A DNA stretch of 62,005 nucleotides, counting the filler, from Stramenopiles sp. TOSAG23-3 (Eukaryota): NCBI GenBank assembly GCA_900128585.1. It is 12 parts of 12 records of this genome, joined end to end, with 100 filler letters (N's around TTAATTAATTAA, not from the genome) between each part and the next. Parts side by side here need not be neighbours in the genome. Positions count along the whole stretch, not along the records: positions 25,965 to 31,039 come from LT643616.1; 11 more parts are not named here. One strand, 5' to 3'. The position numbers were made by a program, and so were the translations under genes. This document shows, one piece after another, positions 969 through 32,576 of this stretch. The notes beneath the pieces were generated by a model. The model was not told the origin of the DNA. It saw only the letters and a list, made by a program, of their open reading frames with translations, and searched no databases. The stretch's first letter is position 1, and each line of letters begins with the position of its first letter.

Positions 969-2441
969 ATGCGTGCCCTTGTGTTTGCTTCGGTCTTTGC
1001 TGCCGTTCTTCTTGCGTGTGGCGCGTCGTTGGCTGCGGCGCATACGGCGGCGGAATGGAGGTCGAGGTCAATCTACCAGCTGCTGACGGACCGGTTTTCG
1101 ACGGGGACAAAATCCGCCCAGCCATGCTCGAACTTGGGGGCATACTGCGGCGGTACGTTTGCGGGGGTGGTCGAAAAGCTGGACTACATTCAAGGGATGG
1201 GGTTTGACGCGATTTGGATCTCCCCGGTCGTCGACAACACGGACGGGGGGTACCACGGGTACTGGGCCCAGAACCTGTTTGCGATCAACTCGCACTTTGG
1301 CACGGCGTCCGACCTGAACACGCTTGTGGAGGAGTGCCACAAGCGCGACATGTGGGTCATGCTCGACGTCGTCGGGAACCACATGGGGTACGGCGCCCCG
1401 TCCGGGAGTTTTGCGCCCCTGGACCAGCCAGAAATGTACCACGACTGCGACAGCTGCCCGCAGTATTGCAACATCGACGACTGGCAAGACCAGGACCAGG
1501 TCCAGCTGTGCCGCCTGGTGGGGCTCCCCGACCTGAACCAGTCGAACCCGTACGTCGCGAACGTGCTGAACACGTGGATCAAGCAGATCGTGGCAAACTA
1601 CAGCTTTGACGGGATACGGATCGACACCGTCCCGGAAGTCAACAAACCGTTCTGGGGGGAGTTCAAAGCCAGCAGCGGGGTTTTTGCGATCGGGGAGATC
1701 GAGAACGGGGACATCGGGTACGTCAGTTCGTACCAGTCGCGCACCCCCGGGACGAACGCCCCGGGCGTCGATGGAACGCTCTCGTACCCGTTGTACTTTA
1801 CCCTCAGGAACGTGTTCCAGAACGGCCAGTCCATGTCGCAGCTCCACGACACGCTGCAGACCTACAAGTCGGCGTTCGCGGACACGAGCATCTTGGGGAC
1901 CTTCGCGGACAACCACGACAACCCCCGGTTCCTCTCGGGCCAGCAGGACCGGAAGATGTACGAAGCCTTGATCACCTTTGTGCTCATGGCCGAAGGCATC
2001 CCGATCGTGTACTACGGGACCGAGCAGTGGCTGTCCGGGACCAACGACCCGAACAACCGGGAAGCCCTCTGGAACACGGGGTACAGCACGGACACGGACA
2101 TGTACACCCTGATCAAGCTGGTGAACACCCACCGGAGCAAGGTGGGGGCCTGGAAAGAGACCCAAGTGCAGCGGTACGTGGACGACGAGTTCTACGCGTT
2201 TACCCGCGGCAATTCCTTGGTCTGTTTGACGAACCAAGGGTCCAACAAGAACACACTGAAGACCATATCGTACCACCCGTACGCCCCTGGGACGAAGATC
2301 TGCAACATTATGTACCCGGACAATACCGACTGCGTCACCGTGAACGGCTCCTTCCAAGTCTACTTGAAGGGGGGGGAAAGCAAGATTTACTACCCTGTCC
2401 AAGGCGCCCTTCGAGGGACCGCCCCCCAGGAGGAAGAGTAA
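969..2441 (+). CDS. Secreted alpha-amylase, GH13 (fungal/Taka-amylase-like)
   Basis: Signal-peptide-like N-terminus; WRSRSIYQLLTDRF, YHGYW, DVVGNH, DGIRIDTV (nucleophile Asp), GE and FADNHDNPRF motifs; C-terminal beta domain. Confidence 0.95.
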   Translation: MRALVFASVFAAVLLACGASLAAAHTAAEWRSRSIYQLLTDRFSTGTKSAQPCSNLGAYCGGTFAGVVEKLDYIQGMGFDAIWISPVVDNTDGGYHGYWAQNLFAINSHFGTASDLNTLVEECHKRDMWVMLDVVGNHMGYGAPSGSFAPLDQPEMYHDCDSCPQYCNIDDWQDQDQVQLCRLVGLPDLNQSNPYVANVLNTWIKQIVANYSFDGIRIDTVPEVNKPFWGEFKASSGVFAIGEIENGDIGYVSSYQSRTPGTNAPGVDGTLSYPLYFTLRNVFQNGQSMSQLHDTLQTYKSAFADTSILGTFADNHDNPRFLSGQQDRKMYEALITFVLMAEGIPIVYYGTEQWLSGTNDPNNREALWNTGYSTDTDMYTLIKLVNTHRSKVGAWKETQVQRYVDDEFYAFTRGNSLVCLTNQGSNKNTLKTISYHPYAPGTKICNIMYPDNTDCVTVNGSFQVYLKGGESKIYYPVQGALRGTAPQEEE

Positions 2442-2569
2442 AGGGGTTTGGCGGGAGGCAACGAGGGTTGGTTCGTTTAAAAAATAGTGTTACACCTTAC
2501 GTATCGTACAGGTTTTTAGTGCGCTGCTGCAAAGCTATTGCATGGACGAGTTTACGTTACGTGTTTTTT

Positions 2570-3283
2570 TTAATTTTTCTTCTTCGAACCCAGCAACTTT
2601 GCCTTGGCCAAGGAAAACTCTGCCTCGCTAAGGATTCCCTCCGTCTTCAACTTGTTCAACGCCAGGATCTCCTCTACCATCGATTTTTGGACTCCCTCCT
2701 CCGGTGTTTTTCGGCCACGAAGTGGTTCCTGCCGTTCGCGAGGCACGCCCCCGGCCGCCGCCGCGCCAGGGGTCCCCTCTTGCGCAACAGGGGCATACCC
2801 GGACGAACGCCCAACGCAAGCCCCGCAGCATTTATTGCAGGTAACGCAGTACACAATGCCCGCTCCCAACCGTTTGCACGCCCTGGTGGCACAGCCGCAG
2901 GACACGCACCTCCCGCATAGCTTTGCCCGGCAGAGGCAGCAACAAAGGTAACTCCATGTGCTTTTGCGAACCGGGAGGATGGAAATTTTCAAAATCCCGA
3001 CGAGAATATCCTCCGTCGTGTTCGGCGCCAGTAACACCCCGAGCACCAGCATTGGTATCCAGACCAACAAGAGCGGTACCCACGTCCCCCGCGCGTGCCA
3101 CATGACGTACGTGGACAAAAGCATCACAAAAAGTATAATGAACGGACCAATCTCCGACTCCATCAACACGTCCGATATCCTACGAAGTTGCCGACGGTGT
3201 CGAACTGGCACTGTTTTTTTCCTCTTTCCCCCCGGCCCACCGTTCTCTAAATTCTCAACTCCAATATGAGGAGGGTCAAACAT
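2570..3283 (-). CDS. Membrane protein with Cys-rich segment and C-terminal SHOCT-like domain
   Basis: Two hydrophobic helices, Cys cluster, and C-terminal EEILALNKLKTEGILSEAEFSLAKAKLL matching the SHOCT pattern. Confidence 0.7.
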   Translation of the reverse strand: MFDPPHIGVENLENGGPGGKRKKTVPVRHRRQLRRISDVLMESEIGPFIILFVMLLSTYVMWHARGTWVPLLLVWIPMLVLGVLLAPNTTEDILVGILKISILPVRKSTWSYLCCCLCRAKLCGRCVSCGCATRACKRLGAGIVYCVTCNKCCGACVGRSSGYAPVAQEGTPGAAAAGGVPRERQEPLRGRKTPEEGVQKSMVEEILALNKLKTEGILSEAEFSLAKAKLLGSKKKN

Positions 3284-5380: not shown

Positions 5381-7796
5381 ATGACGTCCATATCATTGAA
5401 CGCTTGCAGGACAAAGGAGGATGAGCTGAGGGTGCTTCGTCAACGGCTTGGAAAGCTGCCGTCCCCCGAGACTCGCCCGCCTGGTCTTCCTTCGGGCAAC
5501 GCCGCCGATTTCGTGCCGGGGCACACAGAGTCAGGCGTGGAAAGAAACATGTACAATGTTAGAACGGAAAGCACGGTTCTGTGCACCTACCATTGCGTGT
5601 ACGTGCTGAATAAGACGGGAGCGCTGTCGTTCCTGGAAAAGCGGGATCTGTCCAGAGGCAAGACGTGCCGTGCGTATCGCCAGTACGGCTCCGCAAACTT
5701 TGTGACTATTAAGATTGACACACGGCCAGGCGGACTTTCCAGGCACCAGAGGAGCAAGTTAAAGGTCGACATGATGATCATCGATGGGCTCCAGTACAGT
5801 TATTTAAAAAAAGCGGACACAGTTGAAAATGGCCACCTCCACACTACGTGGATAAACACGTCGAGAGATTTGTCGTCCCGGATTTTTCGGCAGAACCATT
5901 ATTACGGCGTGGCCGTTCCACAGAGAGGAGGGTGGAGAATGTCCTGGGCAAAGTACTCCTCCCGCTTGAATTTGGCATTTTCCCCGTCTGTGCCAAGCCT
6001 TGAGCCTTTGGTCCATGGCAGGGCCGGCGTAATGGTGAGCGTTACCGACGACGAGGCCGGCCCAGGACCGTGCATGACCGACGGGGCAGGTCGCATTGGA
6101 GTTGCACTGATGCGGGACATCATCTTTCCGTCCTATCGTGGCCAAGCCAAAGGCCTGCCCTCCAGGCTGCCGCGGTCGTACTTGCCATCGGCGGTTCAGG
6201 TCCGCTACGGTGCCTTCAAAGGTATGCTCCAGGTGGATCATACTCGCAACCCAAAGGCATTGGTGTTGACCAAGTCCATGCAAAAGTACGAGCTTTTGCC
6301 AGAGAACCACTCGGATTTTCAAAATTATGTGGACATTCTTGGGGTGTCCAAGCCGCAAGGTTCGGGCACGCTGAACGCGCAGGTGTTGCTGCTTCTGGAA
6401 GCCCGGGGGGTCCCTGCCCGTGTAATACTGGACCTATTGGACGAGGAGATAGATCGCATCAAGCAAGAGCACGAAAGCGTGGACAGTCTTCTTCATTCGA
6501 TTCGGACGAAGGATGCGGAAACGTTTTCTCCCAATGTCTTGGGCCGCCTGCTCCTGGCCGGGATGGAGGTGAGCGAGTACCATGTTCAGAAGTTGGTGCA
6601 CCAGCGGCAGCAGCAGATGCTGGACTCGCTCAAGGCCAAGATGCACATTGGCGTACAGCATTCCAGGGTGTTTTACATGCTACCAGACCTTACCGGGTGC
6701 CTCCGGCCGAACGAAGTTTACTGCTACGACAGCCAGTCGGGGAATACGATTCTTGGGGACGTGTGCGTGTGCTGTGGAAGGGGCGCCGGGGCAGTTCGGC
6801 CGGGACGTGATCCTGTTTTCGACACAGGGGAGAGGGGGTGGACGCCTCTCATTGCCACCTGCGGCACGTCTGTCTGGGGGCGATTACGACGGCGACAGGG
6901 CGTTCATTTGCTGGGACCAACGGTTGGTACAGCCTGTGAAAGCGAGCGCCCCCCGATGGGAATCTCCCCCATACTACTTCCCTGGGTATTTCGATTCGAG
7001 CAGTGAAAAAGTCAACATAGACGAGTTTGAAAGGGGGCATTCCGACCGGGGCCGCAGCAGCAGCGGCGATTCCGTGGAGAAAAAGTTAAAGTCGATGGTG
7101 TTTGAGGGGGGCAATAGTCCCCTGGGGTTCTGCTCAAACGAGCACAAGCGCACCTCCCGCTTGTTGGGTGCGCAACACCCTGCAGCCCTTGACCTGGCTC
7201 GGCTGTGCGCGAAAAGCGTAGACGCGGGAAAGCACGGCTTCGACGAAGAAGCAATCTTTCGAGAGGTGAAGCGTGTGCTTCAGTCGCTGCCTGGCAGCTT
7301 CGAAGGTCATCCATCGGTGTTGCAGCGCGTGGAGGAGCGTGTCGAGGACGAGAAGAGGGCGATCGAGAGGCTGGAGTATGACGACTTTGCAAGCCCACGC
7401 TTTTTGAACTTGGCAGAGACGTGGGGGGCCGCCGCTTTTGAGAGGGAAGCAGAAACGACCGTGCGCGAGTACAATATAGCCCTGCGAAATGCCATCATCG
7501 ATGACTCAAACTCGCGCGCCGATGCGGTGAAGAAGGGCTTTCGACAGAAGTTTTTGGCATTTCAACCGAGGGAGGAGCGGAATGCACTGGCTCTTGCGTA
7601 TTACAAGGTCTGCCACGACCGGGTGTTCCTTGAATCGCGGGGAGCGAGTAAACCGTATCAATTTTGTTGGGAGGTTGTTGACGATTATCTCTGTTATATT
7701 TACGAAGAATCGCTCCGGGCGGACGAGCAGGAATCGTGGGACAGTCTGCCGTACGTCGTATGCAAGGGCGTGTACAACAAAGGACTCCATGTGTAA
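5381..7796 (+). pseudogene. RDR: Eukaryotic RNAi-type RNA-dependent RNA polymerase, frameshifted at ~6770 with a missing motif
   Basis: ORF 5381 frame has SRLNLAFS, TDGAGRI, PSAVQVRYGAFKGML, KSMQKY, LNAQV and D.TGCLRPNEVY. The frame from 6771 has DVILFS..G, LSGGDYDGD..F.CWD (catalytic DxDGD) and LARLCAKSVDAGKHG. Could be an intact gene with an assembly error. Confidence 0.88.
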
Positions 7797-26015: not shown

Positions 26016-26821
26016 AGAAGGAGGAAGGAAGGAAGGAATATTGAATGAATTGAATGGTCAGCGTAAATAAAATAGTCCTAATAATATATAGAAAGGAATA
26101 AAACAAGGACAACAGAGGAAGGACGGCGGGTGGGATAATAATAGAACGACTTACTTATATATTAGACTAGCTAGTATGAGTATCCATTTTAGAATAGATA
26201 CGTAGACTATGAATTATTTTATTTAAAATTATCGTAGTTTTCTAGTATTGTCACATATAAATAGCAGTACAATAAAAAGTCCAAAGTAATATAAATAACT
26301 AGACTAAGAAGAAGTTGTAAAAATAATAATAAAAAAACATTTTTTTTATTTTTTATTCTTCTTTTTTTAATTTTAAATTGAATGAAATTATTATTGCATT
26401 TTTTTTCCCTTTTTTTTTCTTTTAGACGACTTCCTTCATCACTTAGTTAGGTGCTATTCCTATAATAATAATTGGATTTGATTATAAAGTGGTCTTAATT
26501 ACATGGTCGGTGGTGGTGGTACTTCTTACTCAACCGTTGGTTGGATGGTAGAGAAAGTCCAAAAGAAAGGTTCGAAGTTATTATGTTTGCTCTGTATATA
26601 TGAGGACATTCATTTTACAATCAAGTTGTAATAAGATATGAATTCTTTGCCCTTTTAAAAAGAACAACAAAAGTAAAAACAAGAAAGCATTTTTAGTATC
26701 TATTTGTTGGATTCCTTTCATTTGGTTTTGTGTTTTTATTATAATATAATATCGGGACTGTAATTCGAAACTCACTCTGGGTCAAGAAATAGTAGTATTG
26801 TTGTCAGTAAACGTTGAAAAG

Positions 26822-28369
26822 ATGTCGGACGTGAAAGCCCTTTTTAAGAAAAAGAAGGGGAAGAAGAAGAAGTCGAAATCGTTCAAGAAGAAGCTGGAGG
26901 AAGCGGGCGGCCAGCTGCCTTCGGGGTCGAAGCGAGACAGCCAGCCGGAGGAAACGTACGTGAGTGCCGGGGATAGTATGCTTGCGGCGTTCAACAACAC
27001 GTCGATAGGAAAAGACATGGCAGTGAAGACAGACTTACAAGAGGTCGAGGAAACGCCCGAGGTTAACTTGGAAGACATGAACCTGAGGGAGTACCGCGCA
27101 GAACAGGCAAAAAAGAAAACCCGCGAGGAGTTTCACAAGACTCGCAAGAAGCTCTTGAAGAAAGCGTCCAAGACCCTGGAAACGGCCGCTGTGGCCCCGG
27201 CCGAGCCTGCCGTGCCTGTAAAAATGTCGTGGAGGGAGCGATCGAGGCTGAAGGAGCTCGCCGCCAACCCGGACATTGGCAAACAGTTGCAGAGTGAGGA
27301 GGCGTTTCCAACGCTAGGGGCGGCAGCGAACAAGAACTCCTCCGCCCGCACCTCCGTGTGGGGCCAGACAGCAGACGACGTCGAAAGCGACGAGGAGATC
27401 GACCCAGTAGAGGAAGAGCGTAAGCGACTCGCCGCAGAAGCCGCCGCGAAATTAGAAGAAGAAAAACGGGCCATTTGGGCCCCGGCCGAGGGGGTTAACG
27501 ATTCAATGGAGTACGACGTGTGGTCTAAGAAAGTCAATTCGGCGCTGGATGAATTTATCCAGATTGAGGACTACAGCGAAGCGGTTCTGTGCTTTCAGGA
27601 ACTTAGAAACCCAGCCAAGCACGAAGAAATAGCAATGAAGATGATCGAAAAAGGTATGGACAATCAGCCAGAAAAGGCTCAGCTTCTGCTCGCCGACCTT
27701 ATGGTTAAAATGAGGAAAAACAAGCCCTACATGCTTACGAAAGAGCAACTGGAGGGCGCTTTCAAGGAGATGGAAGGCTTCTTGGACGACCTCGTAGTGG
27801 ATTTCCCAAAAGCAAAGGAGGTCTACGCGACGATGAAAAAGCGCTGCCAGATGAAAGGTGTCCTCGAAGGTGGGCCAAAAAAGAGATTTATTGCGGCAAT
27901 GAAGATGGACGGTGCCAAAGAAGGGTACGAGTTTAAAATGGGTGCGCACGGGCTAGGTTACTACTTGGCGGCGTCTGCGGCACCCGCAAGCGTCGCGGCG
28001 CCGGCCGCCCCATCGTCGAAGCCCTCGCCATTCGGCTCCGCCCGCCCGGTCGACATCAAAGATGGGAAGAAAGTTGTCAATGGTGCCGCCCCGGCGCCTG
28101 CCAAAAAGAAGGCGGACCCTTTCGGGGGCGCTGCCCCGGTAAAGACACGGTCGGACCCTTTCGGTGGAGCCGTTCCGGTGAAGAAGAAGGTGGACCCGTT
28201 CGGGGGCGCCGTTCCGGTGAAGAAGAAAGTGGATCCGTTTGGGGGAGCAAAGCCCGTCGATACTAGTAAGGCGGCTGAGGAAGACGGTGAAGACCCAGAC
28301 CCGTACGCAAGCCTACGAAAGAAGAAGAAGAAGAAGAAGAAGAAAGCTGGCTATGTGCCGGATGTATAA
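26822..28369 (+). CDS. MA3/MI-domain protein with eIF4B-like PFG(G/S)A repeats
   Basis: KKVNSALDEF....D.SEAVLCFQEL and LDDLVVDFPKA (MA3); five PFG[GS]A.PV repeats; GYEFKMG..GLGYY motif; Lys-rich termini. Confidence 0.8.
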   Translation: MSDVKALFKKKKGKKKKSKSFKKKLEEAGGQLPSGSKRDSQPEETYVSAGDSMLAAFNNTSIGKDMAVKTDLQEVEETPEVNLEDMNLREYRAEQAKKKTREEFHKTRKKLLKKASKTLETAAVAPAEPAVPVKMSWRERSRLKELAANPDIGKQLQSEEAFPTLGAAANKNSSARTSVWGQTADDVESDEEIDPVEEERKRLAAEAAAKLEEEKRAIWAPAEGVNDSMEYDVWSKKVNSALDEFIQIEDYSEAVLCFQELRNPAKHEEIAMKMIEKGMDNQPEKAQLLLADLMVKMRKNKPYMLTKEQLEGAFKEMEGFLDDLVVDFPKAKEVYATMKKRCQMKGVLEGGPKKRFIAAMKMDGAKEGYEFKMGAHGLGYYLAASAAPASVAAPAAPSSKPSPFGSARPVDIKDGKKVVNGAAPAPAKKKADPFGGAAPVKTRSDPFGGAVPVKKKVDPFGGAVPVKKKVDPFGGAKPVDTSKAAEEDGEDPDPYASLRKKKKKKKKKAGYVPDV

Positions 28370-28609
28370 ATTAGCTTAAAGTCAAGAGTTCGTACCATGC
28401 ATTTTGGTTTTTTTTTGTTTCAACACTTAAACTAAAATTCTTCAAATCTCATAATCGGGATAGTGAATTTACGCCGTACATATCAAGGGTACTTACTGTA
28501 TACTAAAGATAGGGAAAATAAAAAATCGTCCCAAAATATTTTTAAATATCAAGTTACCTCTTATTTCTATGCTATATATATTTGTCATCTGCTCCGAAAT
28601 CTTGTTCTG

Positions 28610-30154
28610 TCACATGAGCGCGGACATGATCCCCTTTATGCGACTCTGTTGCGCTTCATTGCTTTCCGCGGCAATGGCATGCCGGTCCACTTCTTCTTCT
28701 TTAGCCTCTTGGCTAAGCACCGGCAAAGTCCCTGAGGGGGCTTTCCTCCTTTTCATGTACCTTGAATGCTTTCCTTTGCCAATCAGACGAGTTTCACGGA
28801 GACGACTGTTCTGAGGTTTTCTACTGCTCCCGAATGGCGTTTGCCAAGTCGTCTTTGCGGCGCGGGCGTGCGGCTTCGGATCTTCTTCGCCAATGACCTG
28901 ACCGAGGACTATCGGTTTTTCGATGGGGTCGAGCGTCGGTGTGCTGTTGGGCTTGCTCCGCGTCCCATCGTTTTTTTCTTTGGTAAGAGACATAAGCATC
29001 CCTGGTGACTTTTCACATTCTACAAAAACATCGCCTATTGATTCTGTCTTTGTCGTCATCATCAGCTTAGTAAAACGATTGCTTTTCAAATCCTCCAATC
29101 TTTGCTCATGGAACAGGTTTCGAGACCGGTGTATTTTCTTTAATTCGCTCATGCACGCCGTGCCCAATTTTCGTATGCACGTCCGCTTTAATGCTAAGCA
29201 CATGACTTCGGTTGAACACACAGCCATGCTGCTTTCAACGTAGTCATTGCGGTTCCTTGGCTCCTCTTTCATCCACGAGGTGCCAATCGATGAAATTGTA
29301 TAAAATGTATGACCAGTCGGGGCCGTGCGTGTACCAGCGAGGGGACCTCGCGAACAGTATATACATTCTGTTGCAAGGAAAGCTTATCGTATCCGAAGAT
29401 GAAGACGACGATGGCCAAAACCCCGCTGAATGTGCAGTGCGCCTTTCTCCCGGCTCCTGCTTTGGTATGCTTGCGGCGATCAATGAAATGCAACCGACAC
29501 GTACGGAGACGGTTAGGATACCGGAGGTCAGCCCGAAGCTCTGTCTTCTAAAGCCAGAGTGCATCGTTGTCTCAGTTGAGAGTTATCGCAGAGAGATAGA
29601 AGGGGAAATAGACTTATCAAAGGCGCTTACCGTTTCGCAGATCTATGATGTTCTGCAAAGTACTCCCCCTTTTTCGACAACTTATGATTGGTTTACCACG
29701 TATAAAGCAAGCGTGTTCTTTCGATCAAAAATTTTCCCCAAGGGTTCAGTTCTTTGTCACCAAGGCCACGCTTCTGAATCGTTTTTCGTCATCGTGAGTG
29801 GCACGGTAAGAATCATGCACGATCGTTCCAGCCTTTACCGGACCAGCGTTGACTTGAAGGACCCCCTTGGACTTCAAAATTTACTGAAACGCTCGGACTG
29901 TTTGAGTCTACTGGGATTAAACGAATGCCTGGGTCAAAGCGCTATATTTAGTCACTGCGACCGCTGTTCCCAAGGTCCTCTATTCCGACTAACTCATCGT
30001 CGTCGTCGTTTACACTTTGCACCAAGCCCTTTGCTTTTCCGGGACTCTTCCGATCGGGTGATGGTCGAATCTTTTGTTTGCGTAAAAGTTTGATTAGACT
30101 GTTTGAAGATTCTATAGAAGCCCGCCGGCGACGGTCCGTGTCCTTCGTGGGCAT
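28610..30154 (-). CDS. Tandem cyclic-nucleotide-binding domain gene whose middle segment is inverted
   Basis: Minus-strand ORFs 30154-29948 and 29272-28610 are in the same frame (882 nt between their ATGs). The intervening DNA codes on the + strand for cNMP-binding domains. Inverting 29281-29950 gives a single 514-aa ORF. Confidence 0.75.
29281..29950 (+). other. Inverted internal coding segment (about 1.7 cNMP-binding domains)
   Basis: VYQRGD.ANSIYILLQGKL...L.PGSCFG.LA......RTETV and LCHQGHASESFFVIVSGTV...LG..ECLGQSAIF. Breakpoints uncertain by about 10-30 nt. Confidence 0.78.
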
Positions 30155-31139
30155 TTTATTCAGAGTGCGACTATTTGCTCTCCCGCTCTAGGTAATCTTA
30201 GTCGTTCCCTATACTTTAAAAAGTCGGGAAATTATCTTATTCATTCATCAGTTATTGATAAATACTTTTCTTCTTTGGGGTAGTCACTTTTACATTTGTG
30301 TCAGTCTAAAAAAATATAAAATAACGGTTGGAGATATATTATATATAATAATATATGATGAGACAACACAACAACAAAAAAAAGAAGAAAAAAAACAAAA
30401 GAAGTAAATAATAAATAATAAAGAAATAAAACGAATAATATTAACACCACAGCAAGGTGGGAGGAGAAGACCAGGTTTTTTTTTTTTTTTAATTATTACG
30501 AGTATATAGTAGTGTCTATATATATTAAAAGAAGATCATTTGGTAGTGGAGAATTTCCCTTTCGTTTTACAAGCGTCGTTCATTTGTGATAATAATCTTA
30601 CATATTTATACGCATATCTCGAAGAAGATCATCACGGAGTGATACGAGGGACAACAAGATCATAATCTTTGCTGGCTCATGCAGGAGCTGTGACAAGAGT
30701 AGACTACTGATGGATCTATCAACGGTGAACAAGATATCCAGGCATTCTTCTTTATTATTTTTTTATTTTTTATTTTATTTGTTTTTTATTTCATTATTAC
30801 TAGCACTAGCATAGTAAAAGAATTAAATAATAAAGAAATAACGAATAAAATAAACACAGCAAGAACAGTTAAAATCATTCGTTGCTTTCTATCTTCTTCA
30901 TGATTTTCTTTAATTTTTAATTCATATTTTTTATATTATCTCCATCATTAAATATTTAATATATCCCTCTCCTAGGCATAACAGACAGCTGAACTGTCTG
31001 TTAATTTATATAGAATGAACTATACTTAGAGTATACGTGNNNNNNNNNNNNNNNNNNNNNNNNNNNNNNNNNNNNNNNNNNNNTTAATTAATTAANNNNN
31101 NNNNNNNNNNNNNNNNNNNNNNNNNNNNNNNNNNNNNNN

Positions 31140-32576
<1,437 letters not shown>

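Follow-up and report, generated by a model that had tools for sequence, protein, structure and literature searches.

The gene at positions 28610–30154 of the window (by which we mean the whole 62,005-nt stretch of DNA that was analysed) is a broken copy of an otherwise colinear, intronless gene for a 972-aa protein with four cNMP-binding stretches, in which 1373 nt of coding sequence are missing and the adjoining 683 nt stand in reverse orientation. Comparison with the intact gene in other samples suggested that the rearrangement is very probably non-programmed and private to one sample, and that it has about an even chance of having been made in vivo, as an end-joining mutant allele, rather than in the tube. 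The two readings that survived our analysis, a real allele and an MDA chimera, are both known kinds of one-off event.

As read in the window, the locus consisted of three overlapping reading frames on alternating strands. The ORF listing of the window contained a 68-aa ORF on the minus strand (29948..30154, MPTK...GRSD followed by a stop), a 220-aa ORF on the same strand (28610..29272, MKEEPRNRN...SALM) and, between the two, a 293-aa ORF on the plus strand (29212..30093). The Pfam scan identified two stretches of the cNMP_binding family (PF00027) in the plus-strand ORF at E = 1.4e-15 and 57.5 bits, the gathering score for membership being 27.5 bits, and assigned no family above threshold to either minus-strand piece. 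This arrangement had been described in the first-pass annotation as a start segment and a tail on the minus strand enclosing a cNMP-binding middle on the plus strand, and every one of these ORFs was recovered. In silico inversion of 29281–29950 or of 29274–29957, both of which had been proposed there to open the frame, and also of 29281–29962, yielded in each case an open frame of 1545 nt (514 codons, 0 internal stops), as against 10 stops in the minus strand left unflipped. In base composition, region 28610–30154 fell in a GC-richer block with AT-rich spacers on either side, the pattern also shown by the other genes of the eukaryote-type window. The AT skew of the inverted piece was near 0 and not clearly opposite to that of its flanks.

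The intact form of the gene was recovered by a search among longer proteins, in which P0001, a 972-aa protein, showed 100% identity over the plus-strand query. When P0001 was aligned back to the window with tblastn, its residues 1–64 matched 30154..29963 on the minus strand (100%, E = 5e-33), residues 523–749 matched 29281..29961 on the plus strand (99.6%, E = 1e-146) and residues 751–972 matched 29278..28613 on the minus strand (100%, E = 3e-142), whereas residues 65–522 had a tblastn match nowhere across the whole 62-kb window. Thus, the three pieces belong to one protein and not to different ones, which is what the check for colinearity with homologues suggested earlier was meant to decide, and the match of all three pieces to a single protein is far beyond chance. 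The same alignment corrected the view that the flip restores a complete 514-aa protein: the native protein is 972 aa long, and the 1373 nt corresponding to codons 65–522 are missing from the window whichever way the middle is turned.

Several further sequences supported the colinear order. The 90% cluster of P0001 contained three 972-aa sequences (P0001, P0005 and P0008) from 6 contigs deposited in ENA, JGI/IMG and NCBI, together with a 120-aa fragment (P0009) that spans the boundary between residues 64 and 65 with the normal join. A more distant relative of 981 aa (P0003, 44% identical) was colinear over the same parts, and both P0001 and P0003 ran continuously through ...GQSAIFSHCDPSWMKEEPRNRN..., leaving the boundary between the inverted middle and the tail uninterrupted. 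This bore out the earlier proposal that the plus-strand middle and the minus-strand tail had once formed one continuous cNMP-binding domain. At the DNA level, a 7767-nt metagenome contig (L001) carried the wild-type gene as a single 2919-nt frame. Another member of the P0001 cluster, P0004, was the exact 220-aa tail ORF of the window, entered as a stand-alone 'protein' in a public eukaryote proteome set (source 'eukprot').

Pfam assigned four PF00027 stretches to the intact P0001 (E = 1.8e-52, 175.7 bits) and likewise four to P0003 (158.2 bits), and detected no kinase or other Pfam domain besides cNMP_binding in the 972 aa of P0001. Residues 59–326 of P0001 matched solved PKG and PKA-R structures at E = 1e-33 to 1e-28, and the best structure match of the protein was Toxoplasma PCR12/TGME49_219070 (E = 4e-41). 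The strongest PKG/PKA-R structure matches of the intact protein fall in codons 65–522, the very part missing from the window. One source names the protein 'CRP-like cAMP-binding protein', an automatic label, and the role of the protein is a predicted one.

To describe the rearrangement, we divided the wild-type gene into segments A-B-C-D, with A for codons 1–64, B for the next 1373 nt, C for the following 683 nt and D for the remainder, and fixed the breakpoints by blastn of the wild-type L001 against the window. In the window, A was followed by C as its reverse complement and then by D, with B missing. Segment A (29963..30154, minus strand) begins at the start ATG at 30154 and corresponds to L001 3001–3192; together with its 5′ leader it aligned as L001 2713–3192 to window 30441..29963 with 99.2% identity (3 mismatches and 1 gap in 480 positions), and in the window it continues into 4 foreign codons followed by a stop. 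Segment B, with codons 65–522 (L001 3193–4565), is absent. Segment C (29281..29962, inverted and thus read on the plus strand) comprises codons 523–749 and one additional base and encodes cNMP-binding domain 3 together with the beginning of domain 4, and its alignment covered L001 4566–5248 and window 29280..29962. Segment D (28610..29280, minus strand) holds the rest of codon 750, codons 751–972 and the stop (L001 5249–5919), which give the remainder of domain 4 plus the C-terminal tail, and its blastn match extended downstream as L001 5249–6285 on window 29280..28244 at 100% identity. Segments C and D contained 0 substitutions, the sole mismatch in the alignment of C lying within a 3-nt overrun beyond the joint.

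Two novel joints hold these pieces together. At J1, between 29962 and 29963, the end of the inverted C meets the end of A bluntly, with 0 nt of overlap, and this is also the site of the loss of B; at J2, between 29280 and 29281, the start of the inverted C meets the start of D with an overlap of 1 nt, a G at 29280 that can be assigned to either C or D, as L001 4566 and L001 5249 both align to it. These positions replaced the pairs 29281/29950 and 29274/29957 given by the first-pass annotation. In the wild-type sequence the breakpoints lie at L001 3192/3193, 4565/4566 and 5248/5249, all within about 2 kb, and the C/D breakpoint is common to both joints, to the nucleotide. J1 unites sites 2056 nt apart and J2 sites 683 nt apart, both on opposite strands. 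The deletion directly adjoins the inverted piece, so that three breakpoints describe the event with no other change, and the net loss of 1374 nt (1373 + 1) equals exactly 458 codons. No pair of inverted repeats brackets 29280–29962, in agreement with the earlier remark that long inverted repeats were not visible there, and in the wild-type DNA, inverted matches between the 40-nt surroundings of any two breakpoints reached at most 5–7 nt. Pointer-like direct repeats were likewise absent from the joints (0 and 1 nt), where the segments abut with no IES-like spacer DNA.

The two arrangements were distributed very unequally among samples. Of the 24 runs given by a run search, 20 contained the stretch or part of it, and the contigs (not the reads) of four of them, X1, X3, X4 and X15, were compared with 28300–30500; the runs outside this comparison were X2 and X5–X14, with 0.54–1.00 of the sampled words, and X16–X20, RNA runs with small shares. 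Parts of the stretch left uncovered in X3, X4 and X15 were not counted as evidence. In X1, the possible source sample, a 3136-nt contig matched window 28352..30360 with 0 differences through both joints; this Logan contig was unbranched at either joint and had a mean word depth of 24. X1 is possibly the data behind the window assembly and hence provides no independent support for the joints. X3, a different sample from this organism, and X4, a marine metagenome, each contained one contig with the colinear D-C-B-A form, in which letters 34–962 lay on 28352..29280, letters 963–1645 on 29280..29962 in the other strand, letters 1646–3018 (1373 letters) matched nothing in the window and the remainder followed from 29963 onward.

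In two contigs from the metatranscriptome X15, loose ends preceded 29280 and 29963. Translated by hand, their 30-letter consensuses read ...DASNGAKLRL before CQS and MVIQPKETEL after ...GNS; these peptides correspond to both ends of B in P0001 and represent the normal A-B and B-C joins. Since these RNA contigs carry the ends of B, their source was the colinear gene rather than the window form. Altogether, the colinear gene was present in the DNA of two independent samples, X3 and X4, the RNA of X15, one contig of a JGI collection and the six database contigs, and the rearranged form in the possible source sample X1 only. The J1 30-mer had 0 exact matches in the JGI metagenome contigs, a test of low power since the gene is present there at only 1 locus. 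At the protein level, no near-identical chimeric ORF was found among proteins of 161–513 aa, the 293-aa query returning only P0002, a colinear fragment from a relative that is 75% identical to the chimeric plus-strand ORF, and exact look-up of the 68-aa ORF of segment A in the protein collection gave no entry. The first-pass annotation had named support for the colinear orientation alone as a finding that would speak against its reading, and that orientation alone was what every compared run except the possible source X1 showed.

The suggestion that the segment is invertible or scrambled, such that a DNA switch, ciliate-style unscrambling or trans-splicing still makes the colinear product, drew on the 514-codon open frame that appears after the flip and gains from the presence of both arrangements among samples of one organism. 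The flip looks in frame because the net loss happens to be 458 whole codons, which is a 1-in-3 coincidence, and it cannot rebuild the gene, as the 1373 nt with the best PKG/PKA-R-matching part are missing from the 62-kb window. An invertible switch is expected to have repeats at both ends and to interconvert without loss of sequence, and a ciliate scrambled gene to have pointers and spacer DNA; here, no inverted repeat longer than 7 nt lay within 40 nt of any breakpoint, the joints overlapped by 0 and 1 nt with neither pointer-like direct repeats nor spacer, and 1373 nt were gone. Moreover, the gene was colinear in the DNA of another sample, of a metagenome and of the 6 database contigs, the RNA contigs with the ends of B derive from that form, and no recombinase was found among the 10 window ORFs scanned with Pfam. 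We therefore abandoned the invertible or scrambled segment, and consider a programmed or reversible rearrangement of any of these kinds highly improbable. Equally little credence can be given to its strongest version, a regulated and recurrent excision-inversion by which some wild marine protist cells would switch off a four-domain cNMP sensor, with the two N-terminal domains cut out and the next exon-like block flipped; nothing that we observed requires it. A pure software misjoin, in which pieces were wrongly joined and no read contains the joints, might be suspected from a second break in colinearity with L001 about 1 kb off, beyond 30936. However, the independently built Logan contig of X1 spans both joints with 0 differences at a depth of 24, so that the joint 31-mers must be present in the X1 reads, and the joints contain no repeat able to mislead an assembler, which makes a misjoin extremely unlikely. 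Among the alternatives listed by the first-pass annotation, a fixed inactivating inversion and an MDA chimera thus remained in contention, and an assembly error in the sense of an assembler misjoin did not.

An amplification artefact is a serious contender, to which we give somewhat less than an even chance. It would have arisen in an early amplicon by two strand switches and outgrown the normal template, so that the joints entered both the reads and the assembly: both strands would halt at C/D, the antisense strand re-priming where C starts and the sense strand where A ends. Each joint is indeed of the inverted kind that deletes the sequence in between, the distances being 0.7 and 2.1 kb, and this is the type which the cited sections of Lasken & Stockwell 2007 (PMC1855051) give as dominant among MDA chimeras, with 406 of 475 chimeras inverted and 337 of those joining sites <10 kb apart. 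If the sample was amplified, the prior for an inverted chimera with intervening deletion would therefore be high (85% of the MDA chimeras in those sections). The source-side runs appear to resemble amplified single-cell data, being several samples of one organism from one study with 8–16 Mb of fragmented contigs each (1.00, 0.88 and 0.60 of the sampled words), and the confinement of the rearranged form to the possible source, with the second sample, the metagenome and the RNA library all wild type, points in the same direction. The overlaps fit this origin poorly: according to the same sections of PMC1855051, inverted MDA joints <10 kb apart overlap by at least 2 nt in 93.5% of cases, leaving 6.5% without, and the overlap length peaks at 6 nt in the part of Tu et al. 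2015 that we cite (PMC4595205), whereas J1 and J2 have 0 and 1 nt, although an overlap of at least 2 nt is a frequent rather than an obligatory feature of such joints. In addition, two separate switches would have to meet at adjacent nucleotides, a shared breakpoint that a single template copy broken at C/D would account for, and the absence of a branch at the joints of the X1 contig means that normal template would have to be almost absent.

The alternative that we put forward, a deletion-inversion made in the cell, fits these features better. Three breaks, at A/B, B/C and C/D, would have occurred within the gene, after which B would have been lost and C rejoined backwards through one blunt and one 1-nt joint. 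The origin would be ordinary, one-off end joining of the NHEJ type, which would have left that cell or strain with a private loss-of-function allele, and the rearrangement would not be a regulated one. The overlaps of 0 and 1 nt favour in vivo end joining over an amplification chimera. Blunt and 1-nt joints suit end joining better than replication-based switching. Both joints would lie at the same C/D nucleotide because of a single double-strand break, a coincidence that two independent switches do not explain, and the unbranched X1 contig indicates that the X1 sample held little or no wild-type form. Against an allele made in vivo stands the fact that the rearranged form did not turn up in a second sample; also, the comparison was made on contigs alone, and rare wild-type or B-covering reads may be present in X1. 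Whatever its origin, the rearranged copy is unable to encode the protein, as codon 64 is followed by only four further codons before a stop, and it is unable to revert because B is absent.

The surroundings of the gene were compared in the same way, using blastn coordinates, as a MAFFT alignment of the upstream region was uninformative in its AT-rich part. Two stretches present in the window only, an insert of 334 nt at 30442–30775 and the sequence 30937–31039, matched neither another part of the window nor L001 and are therefore not further inverted pieces. On the wild-type L001, an ORF for a retroelement-type integrase (rve), which is not an invertase, lies upstream of the gene. For the kinesin neighbour, no near-identical full-length protein was found in the range of 259–826 aa.

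The rearrangement itself is of little biological interest, and its main consequence is one for annotation. The assembly's 220-aa gene model (P0004) represents the tail of a four-cNMP-domain protein of 972 aa, and for the complete protein the colinear P0001, P0005, P0008 and L001 are the sources to use. More generally, a 'backwards middle' seen in a single sample can be settled quickly, as here, by comparison with the contigs of other samples and retrieval of the intact protein from a large database. Should the joints prove genuine in unamplified DNA, an uncultured marine eukaryote would carry at this locus a naturally occurring knockout of a conserved cyclic-nucleotide sensor, and such an allele, if true, would be of mild use for population genetics and no more.

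Among known systems, the intact protein is closest to other proteins with tandem cNMP-binding domains, namely the PKA regulatory subunits and the regulatory region of apicomplexan PKG, which it resembles in its four PF00027 stretches and in its structure matches; no kinase domain or other Pfam domain was found in its 972 aa, and its function is a predicted one. With invertible switches and ciliate scrambled genes, the rearranged locus shares a reversed coding segment between the flanks of its own gene, but it lacks their repeats, pointers and spacer, has lost 1373 nt and is outnumbered by colinear DNA. The likeness to MDA chimeras is closer and comprises inverted joins, an intervening deletion, a distance of <10 kb and occurrence in a single, possibly single-cell, sample. 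Typical MDA joints, as characterised in the cited sections of those studies, have overlaps of 2–21 nt (peak about 6 nt) and occur alongside normal template, whereas the joints of the window locus overlap by 0 and 1 nt, share one breakpoint and are crossed by a source-run contig with no wild-type branch. Complex variants of the delINV type are known among real variants, including a 5.7-kb deletion beside a 298-bp inversion (PMC6286558), and CRISPR-induced deletion-inversion alleles are on record in PMC10600118, in both instances as far as the portions cited here extend. The human cases in the cited portion of PMC6286558 have microhomology of at least 3 nt and were ascribed to replication-based mechanisms, unlike the blunt and 1-nt joints of the window locus, which in all other respects compared resembles the delINV type: three breakpoints, a fragment lost, its neighbour reversed and the gene inactivated.

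The plus-strand open reading frame (ORF) beside the cNMP-binding gene, located at 31158-32576, encodes a kinesin-13-like protein whose match to the Pfam Kinesin motor begins at residue 2 of the ORF and at position 152 of the 327-position profile. Tblastn searches of the entire 62-kb window with two full-length relatives (P0011 and P0021) picked up the tail together with the motor's C-terminal half, and found no N-terminal half of the motor. The upstream interval (30155-31157) consists of non-coding AT-rich DNA and a 100-nt mask (31040-31139), which covers the beginning of this ORF. This mask is one of 11 pairs of 44-N runs, with 12 bases between the runs of each pair, which are regularly spaced at ~5.16 kb (window 5098-56954) and are masks rather than scaffold gaps. 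The missing N-terminal half of the kinesin could be encoded by a 5′ exon farther away, the gene could be truncated, or a further structural break could lie ~1 kb from the rearranged cNMP-binding gene.

Comparison of the same upstream region (window 30442-31039) with positions 1-2711 of L001, the 7767-nt metagenome contig carrying the colinear wild-type cNMP-binding gene, showed that colinearity ends at window position 30936. A 334-nt piece of the window (30442-30775) is absent from L001, and no second copy of it was found in the window or in L001. Past the equivalent of 30936, L001 carries a 463-aa ORF in place of the kinesin, with an rve integrase core domain detected at the Pfam threshold (E = 9.5e-08). 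These differences between L001 and the window could mean either that a retroelement insertion is polymorphic here or that the assembly is discontinuous at a second place.

Four tandem 39-nt repeats (28103-28262, plus strand) lie at the 3′ end of the MA3-domain gene next to the cNMP-binding gene (MA3-domain gene: 26798-28369); they translate into a recurring DPFGGA.PVKKK-type peptide, after which comes a run of lysines. Elsewhere in the window, a eukaryote-type RNA-dependent RNA polymerase (PF05183; 5381-7796, plus strand) is divided between two overlapping ORFs in different frames, with profile positions 15-387 matching window 5381-7006 and positions 414-538 matching 6582-7796; the coding sequence may be interrupted near 6770-6800 by a frameshift or a short intron.

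Finally, the intact 972-aa four-cNMP-domain protein P0001 differed from the window by a single residue, methionine in P0001 versus threonine in the window, within TRTE[T/M]VRIP (codon 29509-29511, in the inverted segment C). Threonine also occupies this site in P0003, the 981-aa relative, and is the consensus residue among the three 972-aa sequences. Segments C and D (the 3′ end of the gene) carried no substitutions relative to L001, and the cNMP-binding locus is otherwise almost invariant between samples.
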